A stretch of DNA of 64,000 nucleotides. Origin: Actinomycetales bacterium (GTDB lineage: Bacteria > Actinomycetota > Actinomycetes > Streptosporangiales > Streptosporangiaceae). Under the pieces are notes generated by a model, which did not search any database, had not been told where the DNA came from, and worked only from the letters and a program-made list of their open reading frames with translations. The translations under genes and the position numbers were made by a program. Positions within the stretch are counted from its first letter, which is position 1. Every line of letters begins with the position of its first letter. This document shows, one piece after another, positions 21,017-35,033 of this stretch. The stretch lies in assembly GCA_044507605.1 (NCBI GenBank), contig JBIQJI010000008.1:26395-90394 (forward strand), written 5' to 3'.

Positions 21017-21273
21017 GGGATGGGGAGCACCATGAAACCGCCCAGGGACACACCCCGTCAAGTCACGATCACGTAAAGGCGCGCCTCCGGGTGCGGGGGC
21101 GGCCCCGGAGCGGCCCGGCCCGGCCGCGCAGCGCACTAATTGACATCTCCGCTAATATCAGCCCAAATCCCCATACAGACGGGTCGTAATTGACGATTGA
21201 TCAAGTAACTGCATACCAGGCTGCAACCTCTCTGAGATATATTTTCCCACCAGATAACGGAAGGGTGGGGCGG

Positions 21274-22161
21274 ATGTGGGGATTGCGCATCCTCGGGCTC
21301 ACGCTGCTCGTCCACTGTGTCATCGGAGGCATCGGATCGATGCTGTTCCCCGGCCCGCCCGCGTATGCGTCGGCGACCCCTGATCCCACGCCCGAAGACC
21401 TCACCGCGTCCGCCCGTCACGCACGCTGCCTGGACCAGGAGAAACGCGACGACCTCGCCCGTGCGGCCGTCATGCAGAAAGTCGCACCGCGTCTGATCGG
21501 CACCGACAAACTGAGCCGTGGTAAGGGATATATTACGTTGGAGCAATGGCTCGCCACCGACGAACGGACATTCGACCGGCTGTGCTCCGCGCTGCTCGGC
21601 CTTGACGACAAAACCAAAGACGATTCCGGCGACGGGACCTGGTCGACGCTGCTCCAGACGATCGCGGCGGTGGTGTTCGGCTCCGCGGGCACGCTGTTCG
21701 TGTCGTCGTGGCAGGGGCGTAAGGCGCTGGGCAAGGAGCTGCGGACCGCCTCGAATCACTTCCACCACGCCTTCTCCGTCTATCTGCGCGGCTGGGAAAC
21801 CACCGGATTCACCGATGCCGACGCGCTGGCCGACGCTCGCTCGCAGCTGCGGAACAAGCTGGGCGACGTCCAGGATGCCAAGCCGCACTGGCGGCGGCCC
21901 CGCCAGCTCCTGGAGCTCCTCGACGCCCCCGCCCTCGAGGAAGGCGACAACGCCCTGTGGACGGAGCAGACGCAGGACGAGCGCCATCGGCACGCGACCG
22001 AGATGAGGGATCGGCTGGAGATGTTCCGGCGGGACGTGGACAAGCTGGGCATCGCGCTCCAGCATCCCCGGCCGCTGAGTTTCCGTCGCTCCGCCGCGAG
22101 CTACCAGGCCGCGCTTCGGGACGGCCTCCTCAAGGCCGCGCCGACGGACCCCGCCGCCTGA
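21274..22161 (+). CDS. Hypothetical signal-anchored / two-TM membrane protein (cassette gene 1)
   Basis: ATG 21274 is preceded by GGAAGGG. Signal-like MWGLRILGLTLLVHCVIGGIGSMLFPGPPAYASA and a second TM WSTLLQTIAAVVFGSAGTLFVSSW, followed by a charged helical tail. The stop lies 1 nt before the next start. The ORF track begins at TTG 21190. Confidence 0.6.
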   Translation: MWGLRILGLTLLVHCVIGGIGSMLFPGPPAYASATPDPTPEDLTASARHARCLDQEKRDDLARAAVMQKVAPRLIGTDKLSRGKGYITLEQWLATDERTFDRLCSALLGLDDKTKDDSGDGTWSTLLQTIAAVVFGSAGTLFVSSWQGRKALGKELRTASNHFHHAFSVYLRGWETTGFTDADALADARSQLRNKLGDVQDAKPHWRRPRQLLELLDAPALEEGDNALWTEQTQDERHRHATEMRDRLEMFRRDVDKLGIALQHPRPLSFRRSAASYQAALRDGLLKAAPTDPAA

Positions 22162-22162
22162 C

Positions 22163-23296
22163 ATGTCGAACCCCCCGACTCCCAGCCTGCTCCCCGGCCC
22201 GCAGCCGGGCGCGGCGACCCACCGCAACCCGTACCTGCCTCCCGGGCAGGAGGAGGCGACGGCGAACGACCACGTCGCGATGCTGCGGCCGTGGCGCAAC
22301 CGGCTGCACCACGACTTCTACGTCGTCCTGGCGGCCGTCGCGGAGAGCCACGAGAGGTTCCGCGGCAGGTTCAGGGATCCGAACGTCGTGCTGGAGCAGG
22401 GGCAGCTCATCACGGTGACCGGTGCCCGGGGCACGGGAAAGAGCGCCTTGCTCCACCGGTTCGCGGGGCTGCTGGCCTACTCCAGCCCGAAATACTCGCG
22501 AGGCGATCCGGCGGACGTGTCCGGCGGGCTCCCCGGCCGGCTGGACGGCCAGATGCCGCTGATAGCGGACCTGAGCGAGGCCCACGCCCTGAACGTTGTC
22601 CCGCAGGACGCGACGCCGCTGGACGAAGGGCGGACGAAGGAGCAGAACATCTACGAAGCCGTGATCGCCGACCTCAAGAGCCAGCGCAAGCTCACCGAGG
22701 CCGAGGCCGACCGGCTGCGGACGGACGCCATCATCATCGACCAGCGGTGCCGGGCGGACGTGCCCCGTGGCTACGAGAAGCTGGCGGACGCCCTGGAGGA
22801 CAAGAACGCCGTCCTCGTGGTGCTGCTGCCGCCCATCGACAAGGTCGGCGAGTTGAACTTCTACCTGCGCATGGCCAGGAAGCGCCTGGTCTTCATGGCC
22901 GAAAGCGTCGCGCTGGCCGACCGTGCCGACCTGGCGAGCATGGTCAAGGGCATGCATTACTCCGCGTTCACCCATCTGCGCACCGGGATGCTGACGGCCG
23001 CGGACATCAGGCGGTTCATCGCCGCCCGGCAGAACCGCGCGGCTCAGGACGGCCGCCCGTGGGTGACGGTCACCGACGAGGTGATCGAGCAACTGTGCGT
23101 GCGCTTCGCCGGCCAGACGGTGGAGCAGCTCCGCGGCGCCCTCTGCGAGCTGTGCCACGTGGCGATCACGGGCTCGGGCGTCGTCGACATCGCGCTGTAC
23201 AGGGAGTACTCGCGCCAGGAGTTCTTCCTGGCCAGCGCGATGCGCAGGGTCCGGCGCGACGGCGGGCGCAAAGGCCCGAAGGGCACGAAGGGGTAG
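22163..23296 (+). CDS. Hypothetical P-loop NTPase (cassette gene 2)
   Basis: Walker A GARGTGKS (22421-22444). Walker-B-like AVLVVLLPPID. No further family is recognisable. Confidence 0.7.
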   Translation: MSNPPTPSLLPGPQPGAATHRNPYLPPGQEEATANDHVAMLRPWRNRLHHDFYVVLAAVAESHERFRGRFRDPNVVLEQGQLITVTGARGTGKSALLHRFAGLLAYSSPKYSRGDPADVSGGLPGRLDGQMPLIADLSEAHALNVVPQDATPLDEGRTKEQNIYEAVIADLKSQRKLTEAEADRLRTDAIIIDQRCRADVPRGYEKLADALEDKNAVLVVLLPPIDKVGELNFYLRMARKRLVFMAESVALADRADLASMVKGMHYSAFTHLRTGMLTAADIRRFIAARQNRAAQDGRPWVTVTDEVIEQLCVRFAGQTVEQLRGALCELCHVAITGSGVVDIALYREYSRQEFFLASAMRRVRRDGGRKGPKGTKG

Positions 23297-23308
23297 AGAG
23301 GCGACCGT

Positions 23309-25567
23309 ATGCCGCGCATGCAGAATCCGTTTCCGGTGACACCCGCCCTGCGTCTGTCCCCTTTCCAGCTGACCACCCCGCCCGGCGCGGACTTCACGGT
23401 CGTGACGTCCGCGACCGAGGACGCCCGCGACTATGTGGAGAGCTACCTCGACGAGGCGGACCGATGGGAGGCCGAACGCGCGGCCGGGGCCGAGCCGCCG
23501 CCGCTGTCGGGCAGGGTGCTCGGGGTGTCCGGCGACTACGGGTCCGGGAAGACGCACCAGCTCATCGACATCGCGCGGCTCGTCCACGAGTCCGGTGCCC
23601 GGGAGCACGGCGCGAAGGTCCGGCTGCTCCTGCTGGACGCGCCTCGCGGCGGCATCGCTGCGGCCTACCGCGACCAGCTCATCGGCCAGTTCGACCCGGA
23701 CGCCATCGTCGAGCTGCTCAAGGACTACCACGGCGACACGGTCGCGGAGGGGGTGGAGAACGTACCGTTCCCGCCCGGCAGCGAAGCGGAGGACGGCAAG
23801 CGGGCCATCGCCCGCGGCCTGCGGCAGGGCGAGCTCGACCCCGAGGGCGTCACCCAGGCGTACCTGCTGTCGGCAAGCGACATCGAGGCGCGGCTGGCCA
23901 CACGGCTCAGGGGCGTCGCCGAACACTGGGAGTTCGCCAAGGCGCTCACGCTGATGCTCGACCCACCGTCGCGGGACGCCGCCTGGCGCTGGTTCCGCGG
24001 TGACGCCCCGGGGAAGGAGCTGCGCGACAACGGGATCACGGCGTCGATCGCCACCGAATCGATGGCCTACGACGCGCTCGCCGTCCTCGCGTTCCTGCAC
24101 GGGCGCCGGGGCCAACGCATCGTCTTCATCGTCGACGAGTTCGAGAAGCTGCTGGAGGACACGGAAGTCGGACGGCTCGCCTCGCTCCAGGCGTTCGAAC
24201 GGCTCGCAGGCGTCTTCATCGACGCCGGCTGCCTGCTCGTCTTCTCCGCGTCGAAACAGGCCATCGGCCGGCTGTCCGGCGGCCTGCGGGAGCGCACGTA
24301 TCACGTCTCGCTGGCGCCGCTCGACCGCGCGGAGACCGAGCGGCTGATCGAGGGGCACCTGTCCGGGCTGGTGTCGCGCGGGGACGAGGTCTTTCCCGAG
24401 CCCACGGTGACATGTGTCGGCGACCTCGGCGAGGGCAACCCCCGCCGCGTCATCTCGCTGTGCCGGGGCGGGTTCCGGCTGGCCGCCGCCAGGCCGGGGG
24501 GTGACGCGGAGGTGACGGTGACCGAGGACAACGTCCGCGCCTTCGCCCACCAGGAGTACGAGCGGTTCTCCCTGCCCGAGGCCGTGAGCGCCGCGCGCGA
24601 CATCCTGCAGGCCGACGGCTGGCCGCTGCCGGCCGACGACCACCTAGGGTCGCGCCCGCCGGTGGACTTCTGGGTCGACGCCGACGACGCAGTCATCGCG
24701 GTCATCGTGACCGACTCGCTGCTGAGCAGGCAGGACGCCGAAACGCTCTTCGGGCGCGTGAGCGACGCCGAGCTGCGCGCCTCACCACAGCCGTGTCAGA
24801 CCATCATCGTGGTCAACGGGCACGTCTCGCGGTCCGCTCGGGACGCCGTGGTCCAGCGCATCGGGCGCAACCCGGTGATCCATCAGGGCACGGGGTTCGG
24901 CAACGACTTCCGCGCGGCGCTCCTCGACGCCCACCGGCGGCTGCACAACCAGGCCCGGCGCGACGACCTCGCCAAAATCCGCATCACGGTGGAGCAGATC
25001 CTCCGGCAGCAGGAACGGACGCAGCACGCGATCGACAGGCTGCGACGGCGGAGCGGCGCGCGGACCGCCGCGGAGGGGGCCGACGCCGGACCCGGCCCGT
25101 CCCAGGCCGGGTCGGCGCTGCCGGGGCACGTCGACGACGACGCCGTGGCAGGGCTGCCCCGCGAGGTCCTCGACGAGTTCCGGCGCGCTCGGGACGAGAT
25201 CCCGGTCGACCGCGACATCGAGCACCCGTTCGACCACCTGTTCCGGCAGCCCGGCGACGGCGAGCGGACCGCTTCGCCCCGCCGGGCCATGCGCCGGGAC
25301 CGGTTCGAGGACATCGGCGTCATCTGGACGACTGAGCAGCTGGTGCTCGCGTTCCGCGACGCCGTCGCGCGCTGGTACGCGGCCGGGCCGCAGGACGGCA
25401 CCGGGAGAGGCGACGCCGAGCGGGAGGAGGAGCTGCGCCACATCTGCCGGATGTACGAGTCGGCCGCCGAGGACGTGCTGCCGCTTCTGTTCAGGAGGCA
25501 TGCCTACACCGGCACCGGCCCGCTGGAGCAACTGGGTTCGCGCGTGCGTGAGCTGCTGTTACGGTGA
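23309..25567 (+). CDS. Hypothetical AAA+/ORC-like P-loop NTPase with extra C-terminal domains (cassette gene 3)
   Basis: Walker [10 protein letters not shown] (23531-23557). Walker [13 protein letters not shown] (24116-24151). Sensor-1-like CLLVFSAS. Lid motif [16 protein letters not shown]. About 300 further residues of unknown fold. Confidence 0.75.
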
Positions 25568-27048: not shown

Positions 27049-28107
27049 TTACGCGGTCCACGCTCGGCCGTTCTCGCCGGCGGTGAATATTTCGCGGGCG
27101 CCGGTCAGCAGGTGCCGGAAACGCAGATCGGCGCGCCTGACCGCGTGTTGATGAAGAGTCACCCCCAGTGCCAGGCCGGGAAGCGATGGCAGCACATGCA
27201 CATAAATAGCGCCTTGCTGCACATCAAGGACCAGCGACTCGATGGTTTCACAGGCCATCGCGTGTAACGCGTGCGCGACCTGGGCGAGCCCTTTGGGCAA
27301 CGACCGGCCGAGCCGGCAATAATGGTCGCGCTGCGTCTGGTACGCCTGTGCGTCGGTCAGCCAGCCGCCGAACGGCTCCCCGAACCACGGCTGCTCGGCC
27401 AGCTCCGCATCGGCGAGGACATCGGCCGAGTACAGCAGCCGCGGCCCCTGGAAAAAGGCGACGTAATGCAGGTCCTCGACGTTCAGCGCCGCCTCGCACA
27501 AGGCCGCCATGCGGTCCCGGGCGTCGCCGGCGAGCCCGTCCGCGTGCACGGTCACGTGGGCGGTCCTCGTCACCGGTGGCGGGAGGGGGTCCCCCCAGCC
27601 GCCGGGATACTCCTCGTCCAGGCGGTAGTGGCGGCGGATGTCGGTGACCGCGTAGCAGGCCTGCTTGTCCATTTCGTCGACCATCTCGCGGACGGCGGGC
27701 CCGGCCGCGGCGGAGCCGCCCCGCCTGAGCGCGGTCAGGTACTCGTCGGGGCGCACCCTGCCGCAGTGGACGCCCTCGGCGCCGGTCGTCACCACGGTGC
27801 GCATCAGCTCTCCACTGCGCAGCTCCGCCAGGTCCCGGTCGAACATCTCGGCCTGGATGACGAGCTGGCGCAACGCCGCCTCACACTCGTGCGGCGCGGG
27901 CAGTTCTCCGGACGACGGCGGCCGGAGGAAAAACTCGCGGAACCCGTTGTAGAAGTAGCCGGTGAGATCCGCCACCCCGCTGTCGATCAGCCGCTCCCGG
28001 CAGATCCCCTGGTGTGAGGTGTAATCGCGATAGGCCACGATCTCCTGGTGATCCTCCCAGCCCTCGCCGCCGGGGTCGCTGATCGGCACCGTGCCGATGT
28101 CGGGCAT
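27049..28107 (-). CDS. Hypothetical cytoplasmic protein, co-directional partner of the STAND gene
   Basis: High-GC3 ORF 64 nt downstream of the 28172 stop. No motif is recognised. The C-terminal segment IESLVLDVQQGAIYVHVLPSLPGLALGVTL is faintly Roadblock/LC7-like. Confidence 0.65.
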   Translation of the reverse strand: MPDIGTVPISDPGGEGWEDHQEIVAYRDYTSHQGICRERLIDSGVADLTGYFYNGFREFFLRPPSSGELPAPHECEAALRQLVIQAEMFDRDLAELRSGELMRTVVTTGAEGVHCGRVRPDEYLTALRRGGSAAAGPAVREMVDEMDKQACYAVTDIRRHYRLDEEYPGGWGDPLPPPVTRTAHVTVHADGLAGDARDRMAALCEAALNVEDLHYVAFFQGPRLLYSADVLADAELAEQPWFGEPFGGWLTDAQAYQTQRDHYCRLGRSLPKGLAQVAHALHAMACETIESLVLDVQQGAIYVHVLPSLPGLALGVTLHQHAVRRADLRFRHLLTGAREIFTAGENGRAWTA

Positions 28108-28171
28108 CGCTCCGCTCCATTCCGCCTGCCGGGGCCGTGCCGTGCGTCCTCGCAGGGACGATCGATGGGGG

Positions 28172-31100
28172 TCAGTATCCGGGCACCTCGATCTCGATGT
28201 CGCGCCGAACGGGCTTGGCCTCGGCGCCGCCGGGCGTGCCGTGGCGTGGGCGCGCCTGCGGCGGCTTCGAGTCGAGCTGCGACAGGGTGTCCCGCAGGTT
28301 CTCGCGCGCGATGCGCAGATCGCGCGGATCGCGGATCTCGGCGGCGCCGAACAGCCACTGCAGTCGTTCGCAGGCGACCTGCTCCAGGTCGCGCGCGGCC
28401 CGCGGGCCGTTCACGAGCAGCTCGGTGTTGGCGTGGTTGACGGTGGCGGTGAGCGTGACGGGATGCCACTCGCCGAGCCGCTCGGCCAGCCCGCGCCGGC
28501 TCTCCTCGCCGTGCCGCAGCGCGTCGTACCGCCGGCCCTCCTTGCGCAGGTAGACCGCGAGGTTCGCCTGGCACATGAAGGTGAACGCGTGGTCGCCGAG
28601 GATGGCGCGGAACCGTTCGAGGCAGTGGCTCGCGTGCTCGACGGCCCCGGAGTAGTCGTCCTGCGCGTGCAGGTCGGCGGCCACGCTGGCGAGGCAGCGC
28701 AGCGTGAGGATGTCGTCGTCGCCGAGCAGGCGGCGATACTGCTCCAGCACCTCGGCATTACGGCTCCGCGACTCCGCCACCTTGCCGAGCCCGCGCTCGG
28801 TGACCGCGAGGCCGTACTCGATGCGCAACCGGTCGAGGCTGCGCGTGCCGAAGGGTTCCTTCTCCCGCCGCACCAGCCGGGCGAGAGCGCGTCTCAGCCA
28901 CAGGTGCGCCTCTTCGTACTCGCCGAGGCAGCGCAGGGTGCCGGCCATGTTGACGACGGTCCACCAGGCGTCGTCGTCGTCTTCGCCGGCCACCTGCCGA
29001 GTGCGTTCGAACCGCTCCCGCGCCTGCTTCAGGGCCGCGGTGTAGTCGCCGTTGAGGTGCATCGAGGCGGCGAGGTTGTTGAGCGCCCGGCCCGTCATGC
29101 GGTGGTCGGCCCCCAGGGCCTCGCGCAGGTTCTTGACGGCCCGGTCGTCCCAGCCGAACGCCTCCTGGAAGGCGCCGCGGGCCCGCAGCACGATGGCGTA
29201 GCGCGACATCGTGGCCCACAGCTGCGGGTGCCGGTCGTGCAGGATGCGCCGGTGCCAGTGCCACGCCGTGCGGATGTGGGTGAGCGCCTGGTCGTACGCG
29301 CCGAGTTTGCGGCAGGCCTCGGCGAGCTCCATGAGCAGGTCGACCTTGACCAGCAGCCTGCGCGCGAGGGCGTCATCGGGCTGCTCCGGCCGCCTGAGCA
29401 GCGCGTCGGCGTCGGGCTCCCAGCTCCGCGCGCACGAGTCACCGATCTGCCGGGCCCGCTCCCAGGCGGTCTTGTCGGCCACCTCGACAAGGCGGCGGAC
29501 CTGGTCGACGATCCATCGACGGACCGCCGGGTCGGTGCTCGCCCCGGCGTAGTCCGCGTCGATGTGCACGCTGCTCTCCATGACGTCCTGGTCCCATACC
29601 GCAGCCTGCTCCGACCCCGCCGGGGGGCGTGTCTGGGCCGGGCGGTGCGCCGCGAGCACGCGGTAGATCGCGGTCCGCTCCGTCTCGGCCTGCTCGGCGG
29701 TCATGTCGGCCCGGACGAACTCCGCGATGACACGATGCATCTTCAGCCGCCCGCCGCGAGCGAAGGAGACGGCGGCCAGGCCGAACCGGTCGATGGCCCA
29801 CAGCACGGCGTCGACCAGCACCGGGTAGTGGAAACCGACGCCGTGATCGGCGAGCTCGTCGCACATCGCCCGGGAGTTCAACCGGTCGACCTCGACGCCG
29901 TCGGGCGACAGGAACGAGCACATGCGCAGCACCCGCCGACCCGCTTCGCCGCCGGGGCCGGCGAGCAGCCGCTCCATCGCCAGCCGCACCGTCGCCTGGT
30001 ACACCGGCACCTGGTGCACCGGCGGATGGACCGGGGCGGCCCGCCCCGCGGGCTGACGCCTTCTCACGGAGCCGGCCTCTTGCCGGAATCTGGTCACGAA
30101 TTCGTCGACCGTCTTCCCCGCCTGGGCGGCCAGCAGCTCGTTGTCCTCGCGCAGCCCGCTCAGCCGGTCGAGCACCCACCCCGCGGCGAGCTCGATGGCG
30201 AGCGGATAGCCCTCCACCGTGCCGGCCAGCAGCTCGGCGGCGGAGTCGGGGATGAGCTCCCGGGGAAACGTGATGCCGAGGTGCGGCCAGGTCTGCTGCT
30301 TGTACCGGATCAGCTCCAGGCTCTCGGCCGTGGTCAGCGGCCTGACCTCGATGTGACGAGCGCGCTCGCTGGGCTCGACCTCGCGGGCGGTGATCACGAC
30401 GTCACCGGTGCCCTCACGGGGGATCAGGCCGTCGAGCGCGCGCAGATCCTCGACGTTGTCGTAGACCAGCAGCCAGCGCATCTCGCCGTCGTGTTTCAGC
30501 CTGTCGAGCACGGTGTCGACGAGGTCGGTGCCCCTGGGCAGCTCCAGCCGCGCGGCGAGCCCGCCGAGCCCGGCACGGACGGTCTGCTCCGTCTCGGCCG
30601 CCACCCACCACACCACGTCGTACGCGCCGGCGTAGCGGTGGGCGTATTCGAGGGCGATCTGGCTCTTGCCGACTCCCGCCACGCCGCGCAGGGTGGCCCA
30701 GCGGACCGAGCCGCCATCGCCGGTCAAAAAGTCGCGCAGCTCCTGGATCACCGCGTCGCGGCCGACGAACGACGGGTTGCTGCCCGGCAGCCGCTCGATG
30801 TCGGGTGGCCGGGGGAACCTGCGTCTGCCGGTGGGCGGGAAGTCGCCGGACCGCCCGGGCGATGGCGGCCCGCCGATGCGCAGCCCTTGGTACAGCCGGT
30901 TGCGGGCGTCGCCTTCGGGCAGGTCGGTCAGGTCGAGCTCGTCCAGGCCGTCGGGCGGATCGGGGAAGCCGGCGCGGTCGACCCGCACGGCCAGCACCTT
31001 CGCACGCTGGATCAGGTCGGCGAGCCGCCGTTTCAGCCGCCGGTCGAGCCCGGGCGGGGAGACGAGCAGGACGGCGGTGTGCGGGTCGTTCGCCACCCAG

Positions 31101-32134
31101 GCGAATCCGGCGACGGCGATCTCCTCGACCTGTACGCCGGCGCGCCCGACCTGTTCGGCGATCCACTCGGCCCAGGCCTCGTAGCGGGGGGTGTGGACCA
31201 CGAGCACGCGGTCGATCGCGGAGACCCGGCCGTCGGTGAGCACCTCGACGAGCCGCTCGCACGCCTCTCGGACACCGCCCGGCCCCCCCGTCGGCTCCTG
31301 GAGCACCGCGGGGACGTCGGAGAAGGAGGACGCCTCGTAGGGCATCTGAGGGAGGCCGGGGGCATCGCCGGAGGCGCCGGCCGGCCCGGCGATGGGGCCG
31401 AACCGGCGCAGGGCCAGGTCGCGCGGCTCGTCGACGTTCGGGACGGACCCGTCGACCCGCATGGCCAGCGGGACGACGCGCGGCGGGTGCGGGCCGGCGG
31501 CGCGGATGTCGGCGGCGAACCCGGCGGGCTCGTCGACGTAGTCGCGGGTCAGCGAGAAACAGACGACCGCCTGGTCGCCGAGCCCCGCGATCCAGGCCGT
31601 CACATCGTCCGACCAGCCCACCGGCGCATCGATAAGTACGTAGTCATATCCGGACGTTTGCAAATATGACCGAAATGTCGTTATCCATCCCGAATCAACG
31701 GCCAAGCGCAGCGATTCGGACGAGGATCGGGACGCCGAGCCGTAGGTCAGCAGATCGATGGCGCCACGGTCGGTCACGTCGGTGAGATTGAGCCGGATCG
31801 GGTCGGACCGGAGTTCGAGCGCCGCGGGATCGCGATCGTTGCGCTCGATCAGGTCGGACAGCCCGCGGCCGCGAGGATCGGGCTCGTCGGGCAGATAGCG
31901 CCGCAGATAGCGATGGAAGTCGCGGGACCGTGGCTCGCAATCGACGACCAGGACCCGCATGCCCGCCCTGGCCAAAATGACCGCCGCGTTGGCGACGGTG
32001 GTCGTGCGGCCGACGCCGCCCCGGGCCGAACAGAAAATCAGGACCCGGCCAGGACCGCTGGAATCGGCTCCCATCGTCGCTCCCATCGCGTCATCGCGCA
32101 CCCGCGCCGGTCGAGGTGGGCGGAAATGCCGCAA
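28172..32134 (-). CDS. FxsT-like STAND protein: ParA/MinD-like (KGGVGR-variant) domain + TIR-like domain + NB-ARC NTPase + TPR array
   Basis: - aa 28-230: ParA-like (VLIFCSARGGVGRTTTVANAAVILARAGMRVLVVDCEP ... DYVLIDAP).
- aa about 307-390: TIR-like (VLVVHTPRYEAWAEWIAEQVGRAGVQVEE...AVLLVSPP).
- aa about 455-660: NB-ARC (FVGRDAVIQELRDFL...LRGVAGVGKSQIALEYAHRYAGAYDVVWWVAAE...WLLVYDNVED...GYPLAIELAAG).
- aa about 940-1250: TPR (LNNLAASMHLNGDYTAALKQ...).
- The first codon at 32134 is TTG. ATG alternatives lie at 32086 and 32074. Confidence 0.85.
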   Translation of the reverse strand: MRHFRPPRPARVRDDAMGATMGADSSGPGRVLIFCSARGGVGRTTTVANAAVILARAGMRVLVVDCEPRSRDFHRYLRRYLPDEPDPRGRGLSDLIERNDRDPAALELRSDPIRLNLTDVTDRGAIDLLTYGSASRSSSESLRLAVDSGWITTFRSYLQTSGYDYVLIDAPVGWSDDVTAWIAGLGDQAVVCFSLTRDYVDEPAGFAADIRAAGPHPPRVVPLAMRVDGSVPNVDEPRDLALRRFGPIAGPAGASGDAPGLPQMPYEASSFSDVPAVLQEPTGGPGGVREACERLVEVLTDGRVSAIDRVLVVHTPRYEAWAEWIAEQVGRAGVQVEEIAVAGFAWVANDPHTAVLLVSPPGLDRRLKRRLADLIQRAKVLAVRVDRAGFPDPPDGLDELDLTDLPEGDARNRLYQGLRIGGPPSPGRSGDFPPTGRRRFPRPPDIERLPGSNPSFVGRDAVIQELRDFLTGDGGSVRWATLRGVAGVGKSQIALEYAHRYAGAYDVVWWVAAETEQTVRAGLGGLAARLELPRGTDLVDTVLDRLKHDGEMRWLLVYDNVEDLRALDGLIPREGTGDVVITAREVEPSERARHIEVRPLTTAESLELIRYKQQTWPHLGITFPRELIPDSAAELLAGTVEGYPLAIELAAGWVLDRLSGLREDNELLAAQAGKTVDEFVTRFRQEAGSVRRRQPAGRAAPVHPPVHQVPVYQATVRLAMERLLAGPGGEAGRRVLRMCSFLSPDGVEVDRLNSRAMCDELADHGVGFHYPVLVDAVLWAIDRFGLAAVSFARGGRLKMHRVIAEFVRADMTAEQAETERTAIYRVLAAHRPAQTRPPAGSEQAAVWDQDVMESSVHIDADYAGASTDPAVRRWIVDQVRRLVEVADKTAWERARQIGDSCARSWEPDADALLRRPEQPDDALARRLLVKVDLLMELAEACRKLGAYDQALTHIRTAWHWHRRILHDRHPQLWATMSRYAIVLRARGAFQEAFGWDDRAVKNLREALGADHRMTGRALNNLAASMHLNGDYTAALKQARERFERTRQVAGEDDDDAWWTVVNMAGTLRCLGEYEEAHLWLRRALARLVRREKEPFGTRSLDRLRIEYGLAVTERGLGKVAESRSRNAEVLEQYRRLLGDDDILTLRCLASVAADLHAQDDYSGAVEHASHCLERFRAILGDHAFTFMCQANLAVYLRKEGRRYDALRHGEESRRGLAERLGEWHPVTLTATVNHANTELLVNGPRAARDLEQVACERLQWLFGAAEIRDPRDLRIARENLRDTLSQLDSKPPQARPRHGTPGGAEAKPVRRDIEIEVPGY

Positions 32135-32259
32135 TCACCTGACGTCACGGGCCGCGGGCCTGGTGAGCCCCGGCTGAAACGCAAGCGACCCGAGGCCCTC
32201 CTCCGGGTAGGACCCGTTCTCAGAGTAGGAGGGCCGCCCGGGGCGGTCAACGAATGTTT

Positions 32260-32442
32260 TCATTTATCTTGGGGCGGCTGACTCGACTGCACCAGTGGTG
32301 CCGCCGAACCACATTCCAGGTCGTGCAGGATCCGGTCGAGCGCGCCGTTCAGCGCCCGTTTCGACAGTCCGGCGGTTCCGTACAGCCCGATACCCGCGAC
32401 ATCGACTATGTCGGACTCTAGATCGTATCTAGGGGAACCCAT
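32260..32442 (-). CDS. Candidate 60-aa FxSxx-COOH-like precursor peptide (variant C-terminus)
   Basis: ATG start, directly upstream of and co-directional with the FxsT-like gene. The leader-like pattern SDIVDVAGIGL...LSKRALNGALDRIL resembles my recollection of FxsA leaders. The C-terminus is ...PLVQSSQPPQDK, with VQSSQ where FxSxx would be and 5 extra residues. GC3 is lower than in neighbouring genes, with rare codons AGA, CTA and ATA. Confidence 0.45.
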   Translation of the reverse strand: MGSPRYDLESDIVDVAGIGLYGTAGLSKRALNGALDRILHDLECGSAAPLVQSSQPPQDK

Positions 32443-32610: not shown

Positions 32611-34014
32611 ATGCCGCATTTGGGAAGGCGCGGCGAGAACGAACCCGGGCGCGCTCGGCCCGGCCCTCCCCCACCCCGCCACGGCCTTCGCCAGCAGGTG
32701 TTCGACGACCTCGCCCGGGGCGGCGGCGGAGCCGAGGCGGCGCGGCTGCTCGCCACCGCCGAGTTCAGCAAGCATCTGCTGCTGCTCCGGCTCGTCGTCG
32801 CCGAGGCGGAGACGGTCCGGCACCCGCAGGCGGCGGAGACCGCCGACGCCTACGACACGCTGGCCGCGCTGCAACGGCTGGCGCCGGGCCCGGTCGAGGC
32901 GGTGATCCGCTACCCGGCGGTGGGCGTCTGGGCGTACCGGACCATCCAGGCGCTGCGCGGCCCGCGACCCCTCGACGCGCGTCCCGCCCGGCTCACCGCG
33001 ATCGCCGCCAGCGCGGCGATCAGCGGCCGGACGTCGGCCACGCTGCGGGTGCACGCCGACGGTCCCGTCGTCGCCCTGCCCGGCGTCGGGCTGGCCGTGC
33101 TGCCGGGGTCCGCGACCGGCGGGACGGTCGCGCTGCGCACCGGACCCGACGGCGCCCTGCTGTCCTCGGGCGGCGCACGCGTCCACCTGCCCGACGAGCC
33201 GGACACCGACGGCGAAGGCTGGTCGGGCACGCGCGTCCTGTCGCTGCCGCACGACGGACGGCCCGATCCGCTGCGGCTCGCCGTCGACGACCTCGACCCG
33301 TACCGGTTCCCCAGCGAGCTCGTCCACGGGCGGCTGTCGGCGGAGCAGTCCCGCCGCTTCACCGGGGCGGTCGCCGCCGGATGGGAGCTGCTGGCCAGGC
33401 ACCACGCGGAGGTGACCGCCGAGGTGCCGGCCGTCATCACCACGCTCACCCCGCTCACGGCACCGCGCGGAGCCATCGTCAGCGCGTCGTCGGGAGCGGC
33501 GTTCGGCTGCGTCGCCCTCTCCGAGCCGCCCGACGACCGCGCCGCCGCCGTCACGTTCGCGCACGAGCTGCGGCACGCCAAGCTGTCGGCCCTGATGGAC
33601 CTGTTCCCGCTGGTCCGGGCGGCGCCGCACGAGCTGTTCTACGCGCCCTGGCGCGAGGACCCGCGGCCGCTGTCCGGCCTGCTCCACGGCGCGTACGCCT
33701 TCGCCGGGGTCGCCGCCTTCTGGGGCCGGCAGCGGCACATCGAGACCAGCGGGCGGGCGGTGCTGGAGGCCAACGTCCGGTTCGCCCGATGGCGCGACGC
33801 CGCGCTGGGGGTGGCGCGGTTCCTGGCCGGGTCCGATCGGCTGACCGATGCCGGGCGGCGCTTCGCCACCGGCCTGCTGGCGGAACTGGAGGAATGGCAC
33901 CGCGCGGACGTGCCCGCCGAGGCCGCCGCCCGGGCCCGCGACGAGGCGGCCCGGCACCTGGCCCGCTGGACGAGCCGGCACGGGCCGCCGCCGAACGCGC
34001 CGTACCCCGGCTGA
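32611..34014 (+). CDS. HExxH-motif domain protein (aKG-HExxH peptide beta-hydroxylase / FxsC-like family)
   Basis: HELRH at 33562-33576 within FAHELRHAKLSAL. N-terminal LLATAEFSKHLLLLRLVV and overall length fit the stand-alone HEXXH-domain family seen in FxSxx loci. Divergent from the peptide gene. Confidence 0.7.
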   Translation: MPHLGRRGENEPGRARPGPPPPRHGLRQQVFDDLARGGGGAEAARLLATAEFSKHLLLLRLVVAEAETVRHPQAAETADAYDTLAALQRLAPGPVEAVIRYPAVGVWAYRTIQALRGPRPLDARPARLTAIAASAAISGRTSATLRVHADGPVVALPGVGLAVLPGSATGGTVALRTGPDGALLSSGGARVHLPDEPDTDGEGWSGTRVLSLPHDGRPDPLRLAVDDLDPYRFPSELVHGRLSAEQSRRFTGAVAAGWELLARHHAEVTAEVPAVITTLTPLTAPRGAIVSASSGAAFGCVALSEPPDDRAAAVTFAHELRHAKLSALMDLFPLVRAAPHELFYAPWREDPRPLSGLLHGAYAFAGVAAFWGRQRHIETSGRAVLEANVRFARWRDAALGVARFLAGSDRLTDAGRRFATGLLAELEEWHRADVPAEAAARARDEAARHLARWTSRHGPPPNAPYPG

Positions 34015-34049: not shown

Positions 34050-34670
34050 TCAGGAGACGGGGCCGGTCGAGTTCACCTGGGCGGCGCGGTGCACGACGTG
34101 GTCGACCATGCCGTACTCCTTGGCCTCCTCGGCGGTGAACCAGCGGTCGCGGTCCCAGTCCCGCTCGACCTGCTCGCGGCTCTGGCCCGTGTGGTGGGCG
34201 ATGCGCTCGGCCGTGGTGCGCTTGACGTACGTCATCTGCTCGGCCTGGATCTTGATGTCGCTGGCGGTGCCGCCGAGGCCGCCGGAGGGCTGGTGCATCA
34301 TGATGCGGGCGTGGCGCAGGGCGTAGCGGCGGCCGGGGGTGCCGGCGCACAGCAGCACCTGGGCCATCGAAGCGGCCAGGCCGATGGTCACGGTGCTGAT
34401 CGGGTTGGGCAGGAACTGCATGACGTCGTACATCGCCATGCCTGCGGTCACCGACCCGCCGGGCGAGTTGATGTAGAGGAAGATGTCGCGCCGGTCGTCC
34501 TCGGCCGACAGCAGCAGGAGCTGGCCGCACACGCGGTTGGCGATCTCGTCGTCGATCTCGCTGCCGATGAAGATGATGCGCTCGCTCAGCAGCCGCTCGT
34601 AGACGGACTCCTGGGGCCTGCGGCCGATCTCGGTGACGCGGCTGTGCGGGGTGAACGGGCTGGGTTCCAC
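34050..34670 (-). CDS. clpP: ATP-dependent Clp protease proteolytic subunit (solitary paralog)
   Basis: YERLLSERIIFIGSEIDD, YINSPGGSVTAGMAMYD, catalytic Ser in GLAASMA, His in IMMHQP, and Asp in DRDRWFTAEEAKEYGMVD. Confidence 0.9.
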   Translation of the reverse strand: MEPSPFTPHSRVTEIGRRPQESVYERLLSERIIFIGSEIDDEIANRVCGQLLLLSAEDDRRDIFLYINSPGGSVTAGMAMYDVMQFLPNPISTVTIGLAASMAQVLLCAGTPGRRYALRHARIMMHQPSGGLGGTASDIKIQAEQMTYVKRTTAERIAHHTGQSREQVERDWDRDRWFTAEEAKEYGMVDHVVHRAAQVNSTGPVS

Positions 34671-34733: not shown

Positions 34734-35033
34734 ATGACACGTGAGATCCCGGTGACGCAGGCACGCGCCGAGCTGGCCGAACTGGTCAACCGCGTGGCCT
34801 ACAGCGGGGAGCGGGTCGTGCTCACCCGCCATGGCCGGCCGCTCGCCGCGCTCGTGTCCTCCGACGACCTCGAACTGCTGGAGGCGCTGGCCGAGCAGCG
34901 CATCGCCGTGACCTCCATCGGCCCCGGCGAGCAGGGCGGCCCGCCCGCCCGCGACGACGCCCCGCTGCGCATCGTCGCCGAGCACCGCCCGAGCGGCTTC
35001 GAGCGCCCCGGCGGCTTCGGCATCGGCACCTGA
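34734..35033 (+). CDS. Type II toxin-antitoxin system Phd/YefM family antitoxin (no cognate toxin adjacent)
   Basis: MTREIPVTQARAELAELVNRVAYSGERVVLTRHGRPLAALVSSDDLELLE is the canonical Phd/YefM N-terminal domain. Confidence 0.8.
   Translation: MTREIPVTQARAELAELVNRVAYSGERVVLTRHGRPLAALVSSDDLELLEALAEQRIAVTSIGPGEQGGPPARDDAPLRIVAEHRPSGFERPGGFGIGT

Follow-up and report, generated by a model that had tools for sequence, protein, structure and literature searches.

What does a protein do for its host when it places a MinD/ParA-type fold and a TIR-like segment ahead of a STAND NTPase and an array of tetratricopeptide repeats (TPRs)? The question is raised by a locus of an actinobacterium of the Streptosporangiaceae (Actinomycetales bacterium, assembly GCA_044507605.1, contig JBIQJI010000008.1, positions 26,395 to 90,394), the 64-kb stretch that was analyzed and is referred to here as the window. 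A preliminary description of this DNA took the protein for an Avs-like immune sensor with an unusual ParA fusion and missed its association with a peptide-modification locus. Judged by profile and domain matches, the protein very likely belongs, as a divergent member, to the FxSxx-COOH system TPR proteins of actinobacteria. It is probably a STAND (NB-ARC/AP-ATPase) signaling NTPase encoded alongside a small ribosomal peptide and the enzymes that modify it.

The STAND protein has five parts, which in order are a MinD/ParA-fold domain, a shortened TIR-derived domain, an NB-ARC module, eight TPRs and a conserved tail. The gene and these parts are listed below with the evidence for each. Amino acid (aa) positions are numbered throughout from the Met at 32086, which gives values 16 lower than those of the preliminary description; ORF denotes open reading frame and GC3 the GC content at the third codon position.

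28172..32074, minus strand: gene of the STAND protein (maximal ORF from TTG 32134); GC3 of 0.91, NCBI product, NF040586 at 556.6 bits
31217..32047, minus strand: MinD/ParA-fold domain, aa 14-290; Pfam AAA_31 and CbiA, Foldseek, alignment to Soj
30872..31216, minus strand: shortened TIR-derived flavodoxin-like domain, aa 291-405; family alignment, TIR_2 matches, hhalign, structural model
29687..30769, minus strand: NB-ARC/AP-ATPase module with winged-helix region, aa 440-800; Pfam, motifs
28253..29395, minus strand: TPR_10/TPR_12 array of eight repeats with a capping helix, aa about 898-1278; Pfam
28175..28207, minus strand: conserved tail RRDIEIEVPGY, the last 11 residues; alignment of 80 full-length representatives

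Family Assignment and Prevalence

The assignment is carried by the NCBIfam model NF040586 ("FxSxx-COOH system tetratricopeptide repeat protein"), which the protein matches with an E value of 1.2e-166 (the cut-off is 300 bits) in an alignment that pairs aa 434-1278 with profile positions 2-789 of 830. A profile search of a 5.8-billion-protein collection returns relatives under the name of this model in many actinobacterial genera (Streptomyces, Nonomuraea, Actinomadura, Sphaerisporangium, Microbispora, Micromonospora, Actinoplanes and others), and dozens of these named relatives carry precomputed CbiA/AAA_31, TIR_2, NB-ARC and TPR_12 domains. The closest relatives are only 36-38% identical to the STAND protein over the full length, and identities of 37-41% are obtained for the closest homolog. 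With the N-terminal 430 aa as the query, an exhaustive phmmer search yields 2091 representative clusters at E <= 1e-3, of which 512 remain at E <= 1e-10. Among the best 150 of these representatives, 80 have a length of at least 1150 aa, and simple motif matching detects a WAxW motif followed by an NB-ARC P-loop in 73 of 153 scanned sequences (the query, two word-index matches and the 150 representatives). A word-index search with the same 430 aa gives only the two matches, both weak, and a single-protein search of the GTDB species genomes returned no relative of the STAND protein.

The combination of ParA, TIR, NB-ARC and TPR is already known: it is common, is named in NCBI annotation and was described in 2020. 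Kaur et al. (2020; eLife 9:e52696, PMC7159879) report peptide-processing systems coupled to a TIR-AP-ATPase-TPR protein. These systems include an HExxH protein and a small peptide of the FxSxx-COOH type; where an FxSxx-type peptide is involved, a radical S-adenosylmethionine (SAM) enzyme is part of the system as well. The same study covers a standalone form with an inactive MinD/ParA-like domain and places the family among "biological conflict systems". As the combination is found widely in Actinomycetota (the 512 clusters at E <= 1e-10) and the ParA-like module has an NCBIfam model of its own (NF047398), the fusion that the preliminary description called unusual is in fact ordinary for this family. 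In other members of the family, the N-terminal position is occupied by SARP DNA-binding domains (PF03704 and PF00486) or by a caspase domain.

Gene Model

A 1320-codon ORF with a TTG start occupies 28172..32134 on the minus strand, which the preliminary description did not specify; the plus-strand translation of this interval is not the STAND gene. The ORF runs for 3.9 kb without a frameshift, and its GC3 is typical of the genes in this region, where the GC content of the window is 67-78%. The true start is probably the ATG at 32074, which predicts a protein of 1300 aa. This start is favored because an NCBI gene product begins exactly there and is identical to the predicted protein, and because GGGAG lies 5 nucleotides (nt) upstream; the version from the ATG at 32086 is not among the NCBI products. 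Thus, the single 1320-aa chain of the preliminary description exists as an ORF, but the protein is likely shorter. An opposite-strand ORF of 1192 aa (28091..31669) was considered and dismissed as a shadow ORF, since it did not pass the GC3 filter.

All motifs quoted in the preliminary description are found in the translation. In the N-terminal module these are VLIFCSARGGVGRTT at aa 15-29, MRVLVVDCEP at aa 43-52 and DYVLIDAP at aa 148-155. The TIR-like segment, as quoted there, begins with VLVVHTPRYEAWAEW at aa 294-308, and the NB-ARC module contributes GVAGVGKSQ (aa 468-476), LLVYDNVED (aa 539-547) and GYPLAIELAAG (aa 626-636).

The STAND Core and the C-Terminal Tail

The NB-ARC module is canonical, as first described: Pfam NB-ARC (PF00931) is matched at 27.1 bits (cut-off 23.5), AAA_16 at 33.5 bits and DUF7779 weakly, and the motifs are intact (Walker A GVAGVGKS, Walker B LLVYDN, GxP GYPLAIE and an MHD-like MHR). 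The estimate of at least eight TPR-like hairpins likewise agrees with the eight repeats counted here, which start near aa 912, 956, 998, 1040, 1086, 1128, 1170 and 1211 at a spacing of approximately 42 aa and match TPR_12 and TPR_10 of Pfam at 107 and 74 bits, respectively.

The tail forms a strongly conserved motif that recurs across the family and is anchored at the C-terminus, reading R(-11) x D I D h [ED](-5) h P(-3) x x-COOH. The Pro at -3 is present in 39 of the 80 full-length representatives; where it occurs, Arg at -11 accompanies it in 36 of 39 and Asp or Glu at -5 in all 39. By comparison, the motif is found in 0.26% of random internal 12-mers. The anchoring at -5 and -3 parallels that of the FxSxx-COOH peptides, the key residues of which occupy the same two positions.

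The ParA-Like Module

The reading of the N-terminal module as ParA-like is upheld by both sequence and model. Pfam AAA_31 (34.2 bits) and CbiA (33.2 bits) score above their cut-offs, with the alignment mainly at aa 14-58. An AlphaFold2 model of aa 1-440, built from 63 aligned sequences, reaches a predicted local distance difference test (pLDDT) score of 85.5 and a predicted template modeling (pTM) score of 0.85. The top 13 Foldseek matches of the ParA-like part are MinD, FlhG, Soj, ParA, McdA and one chain of DPOR (BchL), the best of the PDB matches having target TM-scores of 0.70-0.77 (0.72-0.77 for MinD, FlhG and Soj) at E values between 2e-9 and 7e-8; BcsRQ is also among the matches. By sequence, the Soj/ParA proteins are the closest of the solved structures.

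Walker A reads SARGGVGRTT, such that alignment to KGGVGKTT of Soj gives a Lys-to-Arg replacement at both lysines, and the Asp residues of Walker A' (D49) and Walker B (D153) are retained. In an alignment of 60 homologs, the column of the GK[ST] lysine is filled mostly by Arg (49 sequences) and otherwise by Gln (7), Ser (2) or Lys (1), and G26, T/S28, D49 and D153 are near-invariant. The NCBIfam model NF047398 ("KGGVGR-motif variant AAA ATPase") is matched at 50.5 bits, below its cut-off of 90, over aa 14-181 (profile positions 3-176 of 190), and its signature GR[ST], in which Arg takes the place of the P-loop Lys, is present as GVGRT. The module diverges from the other family members (phmmer E = 1e-20 to 1e-43). 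On these alignments, the Arg P-loop is a conserved state of the whole family and not a product of local decay. The strong conservation of this loop and of the Mg-binding aspartates suggests that the module has possibly kept nucleotide binding, in keeping with the second nucleotide switch that the preliminary description raised as one possibility.

The KGGVGR module is likewise found in tandem, on its own, and in fusion to NACHT, to SLATT effector domains with two transmembrane (TM) segments, and to CHAT together with TIR and TPR, as surveyed in representatives from outside the window (P0027, P0028, P0035, P0040, P0045 and P0146). Its distribution reads as that of a mobile N-terminal module of conflict-type proteins.

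The TIR-Like Module

When isolated, the TIR-like segment (aa 288-427) matches TIR_2 (PF13676) at 18.4 bits, below the gathering cut-off of 28, in an alignment that spans profile positions 1-118 of 122. The segment aligns with the equivalent segment of 49 relatives, in which WAxW is invariant. TIR_2 matches are found in 38 of the 50 aligned segments (query included; best E = 1.2e-27), and hhalign links the subclade of the query to the other 55 segments with 99.5% probability (E = 1.6e-22). These two results together establish the homology to TIR_2.

The fold is a reduced one. The model of the module (pLDDT 85.7) is a beta-alpha-beta-beta-alpha-beta-beta-alpha sandwich from which helices alpha-B and alpha-D are missing. 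Its structural matches in the PDB are to generic SIS, flavodoxin and receiver folds (E = 6e-5 to 5e-3), with the TIR domain of SARM1 only at rank 47, and a profile search of the family alignment against PDB sequences gives only noise. Thus, the TIR-like segment of the preliminary description stands as a homolog of the TIR_2 family with a flavodoxin-like fold, but taken alone it scores below the TIR_2 cut-off and its PDB matches are generic.

The column of the catalytic Glu of NADase TIRs, which the preliminary description had proposed to check, is occupied by Leu355 in the query and is mainly hydrophobic across 63 sequences (Leu in 20, Val in 15, Ala in 6, Ile in 5 and Phe in 5). A few shorter relatives (P0041, P0065 and P0141) keep the Glu. 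The module is, thus, TIR-derived but predicted not to be a canonical NADase.

Two further matches bear on this module. A TIR_2 match obtained with the whole protein (24.8 bits, cut-off 28) falls at aa 131-213, inside the ParA-like domain, and was rejected as false; the stretch (about 31448..31696, minus strand) could mislead automated domain calls. Pfam DUF4350 is also matched by 8 of the 50 TIR-like segments (best E = 1.6e-8).

The Peptide-Modification Neighborhood

By gene order and BLASTP, the STAND gene lies in an eight-gene neighborhood that is common to all four relatives with a completely recovered flank and comprises an HExxH hydroxylase, an FxsA-like peptide, the STAND protein, a 352-aa protein, a 449-aa membrane protein and three genes of the opposite strand. 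The seven genes other than the STAND gene are as follows, with identities to the counterparts in the loci L001 and L002 of two relatives.

32611..34014, plus strand, divergent: alpha-ketoglutarate (aKG)-HExxH-type peptide beta-hydroxylase; TIGR04267 at 163.8 bits (cut-off 40), HELRH intact, 45% identity
32260..32442, minus strand: 60-aa ORF immediately upstream of the STAND gene, where the FxsA precursor would be expected; BLASTP, alignment
27049..28107, minus strand: soluble 352-aa protein, directly downstream of the STAND gene; 37-39% identity
25559..26908, minus strand: polytopic membrane protein of 449 aa; 52-54% identity
21190..22161, plus strand: 323-aa protein with 2 TM segments; 27% identity
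22163..23296, plus strand: 377-aa P-loop NTPase; 27% identity
23309..25567, plus strand: 752-aa protein in which a P-loop of the NACHT/KAP type and ivWA each give a weak signal; 31-33% identity

All eight genes match their positional counterparts in L001 and L002 by BLASTP, the STAND protein at 37% identity. In the loci of five relatives, an HExxH-like gene and a radical-SAM gene stand divergent to the genes of an FxSxx-COOH peptide (PF27839), the STAND protein and a protein of about 350 aa. L001-L003 have both a gene of about 400 aa and all three of the opposite-strand genes; in L006 the gene of about 400 aa is missing, and the contig of P0154 ends early. The number of other-strand genes in the relatives' loci is two to four. 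One relative's locus also has a CRP-type regulator, as noted at such loci by Kaur et al. (PMC7159879). Canonical members of the family in Microbispora and Streptomyces nigra adjoin fused radical-SAM/HExxH genes, and the S. nigra locus contains a small unannotated ORF ending in GFQSSI.

The 60-aa ORF resembles the PF27839-annotated peptides of L001 and L002 (BLASTP E = 1e-6 and 3e-5; 31% identity). It keeps an FxsA-type leader (…DIVDVAGIGL…ALDRILHDL…) and has a gene call in two Logan assemblies. Its C-terminus is PLVQSSQPPQDK, ending in …VQSSQPPQDK, and has no FxSxx ending; the relatives' peptides end in …FWVGFQDGP, …FASQYQDSL or …FFVQHQSSAAQWE. The aromatic position is Ser in the 60-aa ORF versus Phe, Tyr or His in the relatives, and the last 20 residues are free of aromatics. 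The ORF has no Pfam or NCBIfam match in the local libraries, of which the Pfam set appears to be without PF27839.

The radical-SAM gene, present in the loci of all five closest relatives, is missing from the window: no coding frame of the 64 kb contains CxxxCxxC, and tblastn with the radical-SAM proteins of three relatives gives nothing below E = 0.2 across the same stretch. The formation of a cyclophane requires an aromatic ring. On this basis the two absences are taken to go together, and the locus looks like one that lost its cyclophane-forming radical-SAM enzyme along with the aromatic residue that was its target. Stand-alone aKG-HExxH enzymes that act on peptides without a radical-SAM partner are known, the hydroxylated residues being Gln, Asn and Asp (PMC12636437).

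The intergenic region was also inspected for other elements. A 42-aa ORF (32135..32263, minus strand) was considered as a second precursor and rejected, as the relatives' intergenic regions contain nothing similar; it overlaps the stop codon of the 60-aa ORF (ATGA) and, although gene calls for it exist in two Logan assemblies, is probably spurious. A GC-rich hairpin after the peptide gene proved no better than shuffled sequence (z = -1.25), and the divergent region shows no promoter consensus. This region includes an AT-rich perfect palindrome (CTAGAT-ACG-ATCTAG, 32418..32432) that overlaps codons 4-8 of the 60-aa ORF; it is unusual for a genome of 72% GC and could be an operator or due to chance.

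The accessory proteins give only weak P-loop hints in Pfam and NCBIfam, and the 752-, 352- and 449-aa proteins have no PDB sequence match. Neither the 352-aa nor the 449-aa protein has a match in Pfam, NCBIfam, PADLOC or the PDB. The 449-aa protein, which is the best-conserved gene product of the cluster, has at least eight hydrophobic segments by hydropathy and a tail rich in Pro, Thr and Glu; a role in export or as a membrane effector is conceivable. In their order, the three opposite-strand genes (21190..25567) are reminiscent of the "ternary systems" of three genes in Kaur et al., but none of them matches a MoxR or vWA model significantly. Directly beyond the HExxH gene lies a ClpP-family protease subunit (34050..34670, minus strand), and a Phd/YefM-type antitoxin (34734..35033, plus strand) is also found beyond it.

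Proposed Mechanism and Points Against It

A mechanism is offered tentatively, modeled on how STAND proteins generally work. The TPR array would sense a ligand, for which the most economical candidate is the peptide of the locus itself, possibly in hydroxylated form, or its C-terminus. Binding would free the NB-ARC module for nucleotide exchange and oligomerization, and the resulting assembly would cluster the N-terminal ParA-like and TIR-like modules. As both modules are without canonical catalytic residues, they would be expected to serve in assembly, dimerization or tethering and probably not as an ATPase or NADase, and once clustered they may signal onward to other proteins of the locus as their partners. 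Such a role fits N-terminal modules that are exchangeable output or adaptor units on a STAND core, since SARP or caspase domains can replace ParA/TIR in the family and the KGGVGR module is elsewhere fused to NACHT, SLATT or CHAT with TIR.

Several points weigh against a STAND NTPase that works with the peptide and its modifying enzymes in this manner. The 60-aa ORF is without the support of a hidden Markov model, its GC3 is only 0.67, and it has no close ortholog with which to test selection. The loss of the radical-SAM gene could mean that the locus is decaying and is not a functional variant. The near-invariance of the variant P-loop and of the Mg-binding Asp residues may indicate that the ParA-like module is not simply dead. 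The literature searched contains no experimental study of an NF040586-family member; the ligand, output and biological role are, thus, all inferred.

Alternative Explanations

An Avs-like anti-phage sensor, as favored by the preliminary description, would have its TPRs recognize a phage protein, its NB-ARC module oligomerize, its TIR domain deplete NAD+ or make a signaling nucleotide, and its ParA-like module tether the assembly to the nucleoid or membrane. The STAND architecture of effector modules, NTPase and repeats is common to Avs and bacterial NLR-like proteins, and the listing of the family with conflict systems by Kaur et al. speaks for such a role, as do the SLATT, CHAT, NACHT and TIR domains, typical of conflict systems, that accompany the KGGVGR module and the catalytic Glu that is kept in a few shorter family members. 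However, the Glu is lost in this protein and in most of its family, the TIR fold is shortened by two helices, and the conserved partners are peptide-modification genes and not defense genes. PADLOC finds in the STAND protein only PDC-M28B, over the 36 P-loop residues at aa 15-50, and among the neighbors only the 377-aa P-loop protein, weakly (mad8, E = 4.6e-4). An immune sensor of this type is, on balance, very unlikely. A pathway-specific regulator of the peptide cluster, similar to SARP/AfsR-type proteins, is also unlikely, if less remote. In this case, a ParA/Soj-like module that binds DNA non-specifically would control the divergent operons. The NF040586-related members that bear SARP domains (PF03704 and PF00486) at the N-terminus in place of ParA/TIR are in keeping with a regulator, as are the proximity in sequence to Soj/ParA among solved structures, the position of the STAND gene at a divergent promoter region adjoining the peptide gene, and the CRP-like regulator in one relative's locus. 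Yet the ATP-dependent dimerization that ParA needs for DNA binding is doubtful because both Walker A lysines are replaced, a Pfam scan of the STAND protein detects no DNA-binding motif, and the module is found on SLATT membrane-effector and CHAT protease proteins, which have no obvious need to bind DNA.

The locus may alternatively be a decaying remnant, in which the peptide and perhaps the STAND protein became non-functional after the radical-SAM gene was lost, with the degenerate ParA and TIR motifs a sign of relaxed selection. The missing radical-SAM gene, a peptide with neither an aromatic residue nor an FxSxx ending, and the distance of the closest homolog would be expected of such a remnant. 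By contrast, each of the eight ORFs is intact, GC3 is high in the large ones, the STAND ORF is uninterrupted, the HExxH motif is preserved, and both the Arg P-loop and the absence of the Glu are states conserved family-wide; peptide types that are free of radical-SAM enzymes are, moreover, described for related systems (Kaur et al. 2020). Decay is, therefore, assigned a low probability. Closer to the proposed mechanism, though still quite improbable, is a receptor in which the TPR array binds the free C-terminus of the locus's own peptide. The protein's own tail would sit in that binding site as an autoinhibitory pseudo-ligand until displaced by the mature peptide, and its displacement would lead to NB-ARC oligomerization and clustering of the ParA-like modules, the Arg P-loop of which would form a second, non-hydrolyzing nucleotide switch. 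If true, the protein would be a bacterial NLR-type receptor for a self-made signal in the form of a peptide that is made by the ribosome and modified after translation (RiPP). The reading preferred here remains that of a STAND signaling NTPase of the FxSxx-COOH family that accompanies the peptide and its modifying enzymes.

Comparison with Known Systems

The closest examples are the NF040586 members P0156 ([Actinomadura] parvosata subsp. kistnae), P0155 (Nonomuraea sp. NN258) and P0162 (Microbispora hainanensis). The window protein shares with NF040586 members the core of NB-ARC, DUF7779 and TPR_10/12, the N-terminal CbiA/AAA_31 and TIR-type segments, the tail and the neighborhood. By contrast, the ParA-like domain is shorter in its subclade and the TIR domain is truncated and falls below the Pfam threshold, and its locus has neither a radical-SAM gene nor a true FxSxx-COOH peptide. 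The systems of Kaur et al. (2020) resemble the locus in their HExxH protein, their small and rapidly diverging peptide and their occurrence in Actinobacteria. While the HExxH protein is considered a metallopeptidase in that study, it is an aKG-dependent beta-hydroxylase according to NCBIfam and later biochemistry. Of the peptide types that the study distinguishes (FxSxx, RxD, acidic and FtsH-associated), none is cleanly fitted by the peptide of the window, which ends in …VQSSQPPQDK.

The ParA-like module has the fold of the MinD, Soj and ParA proteins (the SIMIBI class with a deviant Walker A), and its P-loop, Walker A' and Walker B motifs are recognizable. Unlike MinD and ParA, it has Arg at both the signature Lys and the Lys of GK[ST], is embedded in a STAND protein of 1300 aa and has no MinE- or ParB-type partner nearby. 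The BcsQ protein of Escherichia coli has a degenerate P-loop of the RGGVGTT type, yet binds ATP and dimerizes. With Avs, NLR-like STANDs and TIR-STAND NADases, the protein has in common one or more N-terminal output modules, a central STAND NTPase and C-terminal repeats; it differs from Avs and the TIR-STAND NADases in having no match to a PADLOC defense model, no TIR catalytic Glu and a peptide-modification context. The NB-ARC-TPR core is also that of the SARP/AfsR-type regulators, and some matches of the same profile have N-terminal SARP domains; in the window protein, ParA-like and TIR-like modules stand in place of BTAD or Trans_reg_C.

Significance

The family is large, and it ties a STAND/NLR-type switch to the modification of ribosomal peptides. 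Leads that could guide experiments are the Arg selected in the ParA-like P-loop along with intact Mg-binding aspartates, the loss of the TIR Glu in most of the family, and the conserved C-terminal tail. As the locus of the window has neither the radical-SAM gene nor the aromatic residue of the peptide, and its relatives keep both, it provides a natural comparison for what the STAND protein senses.

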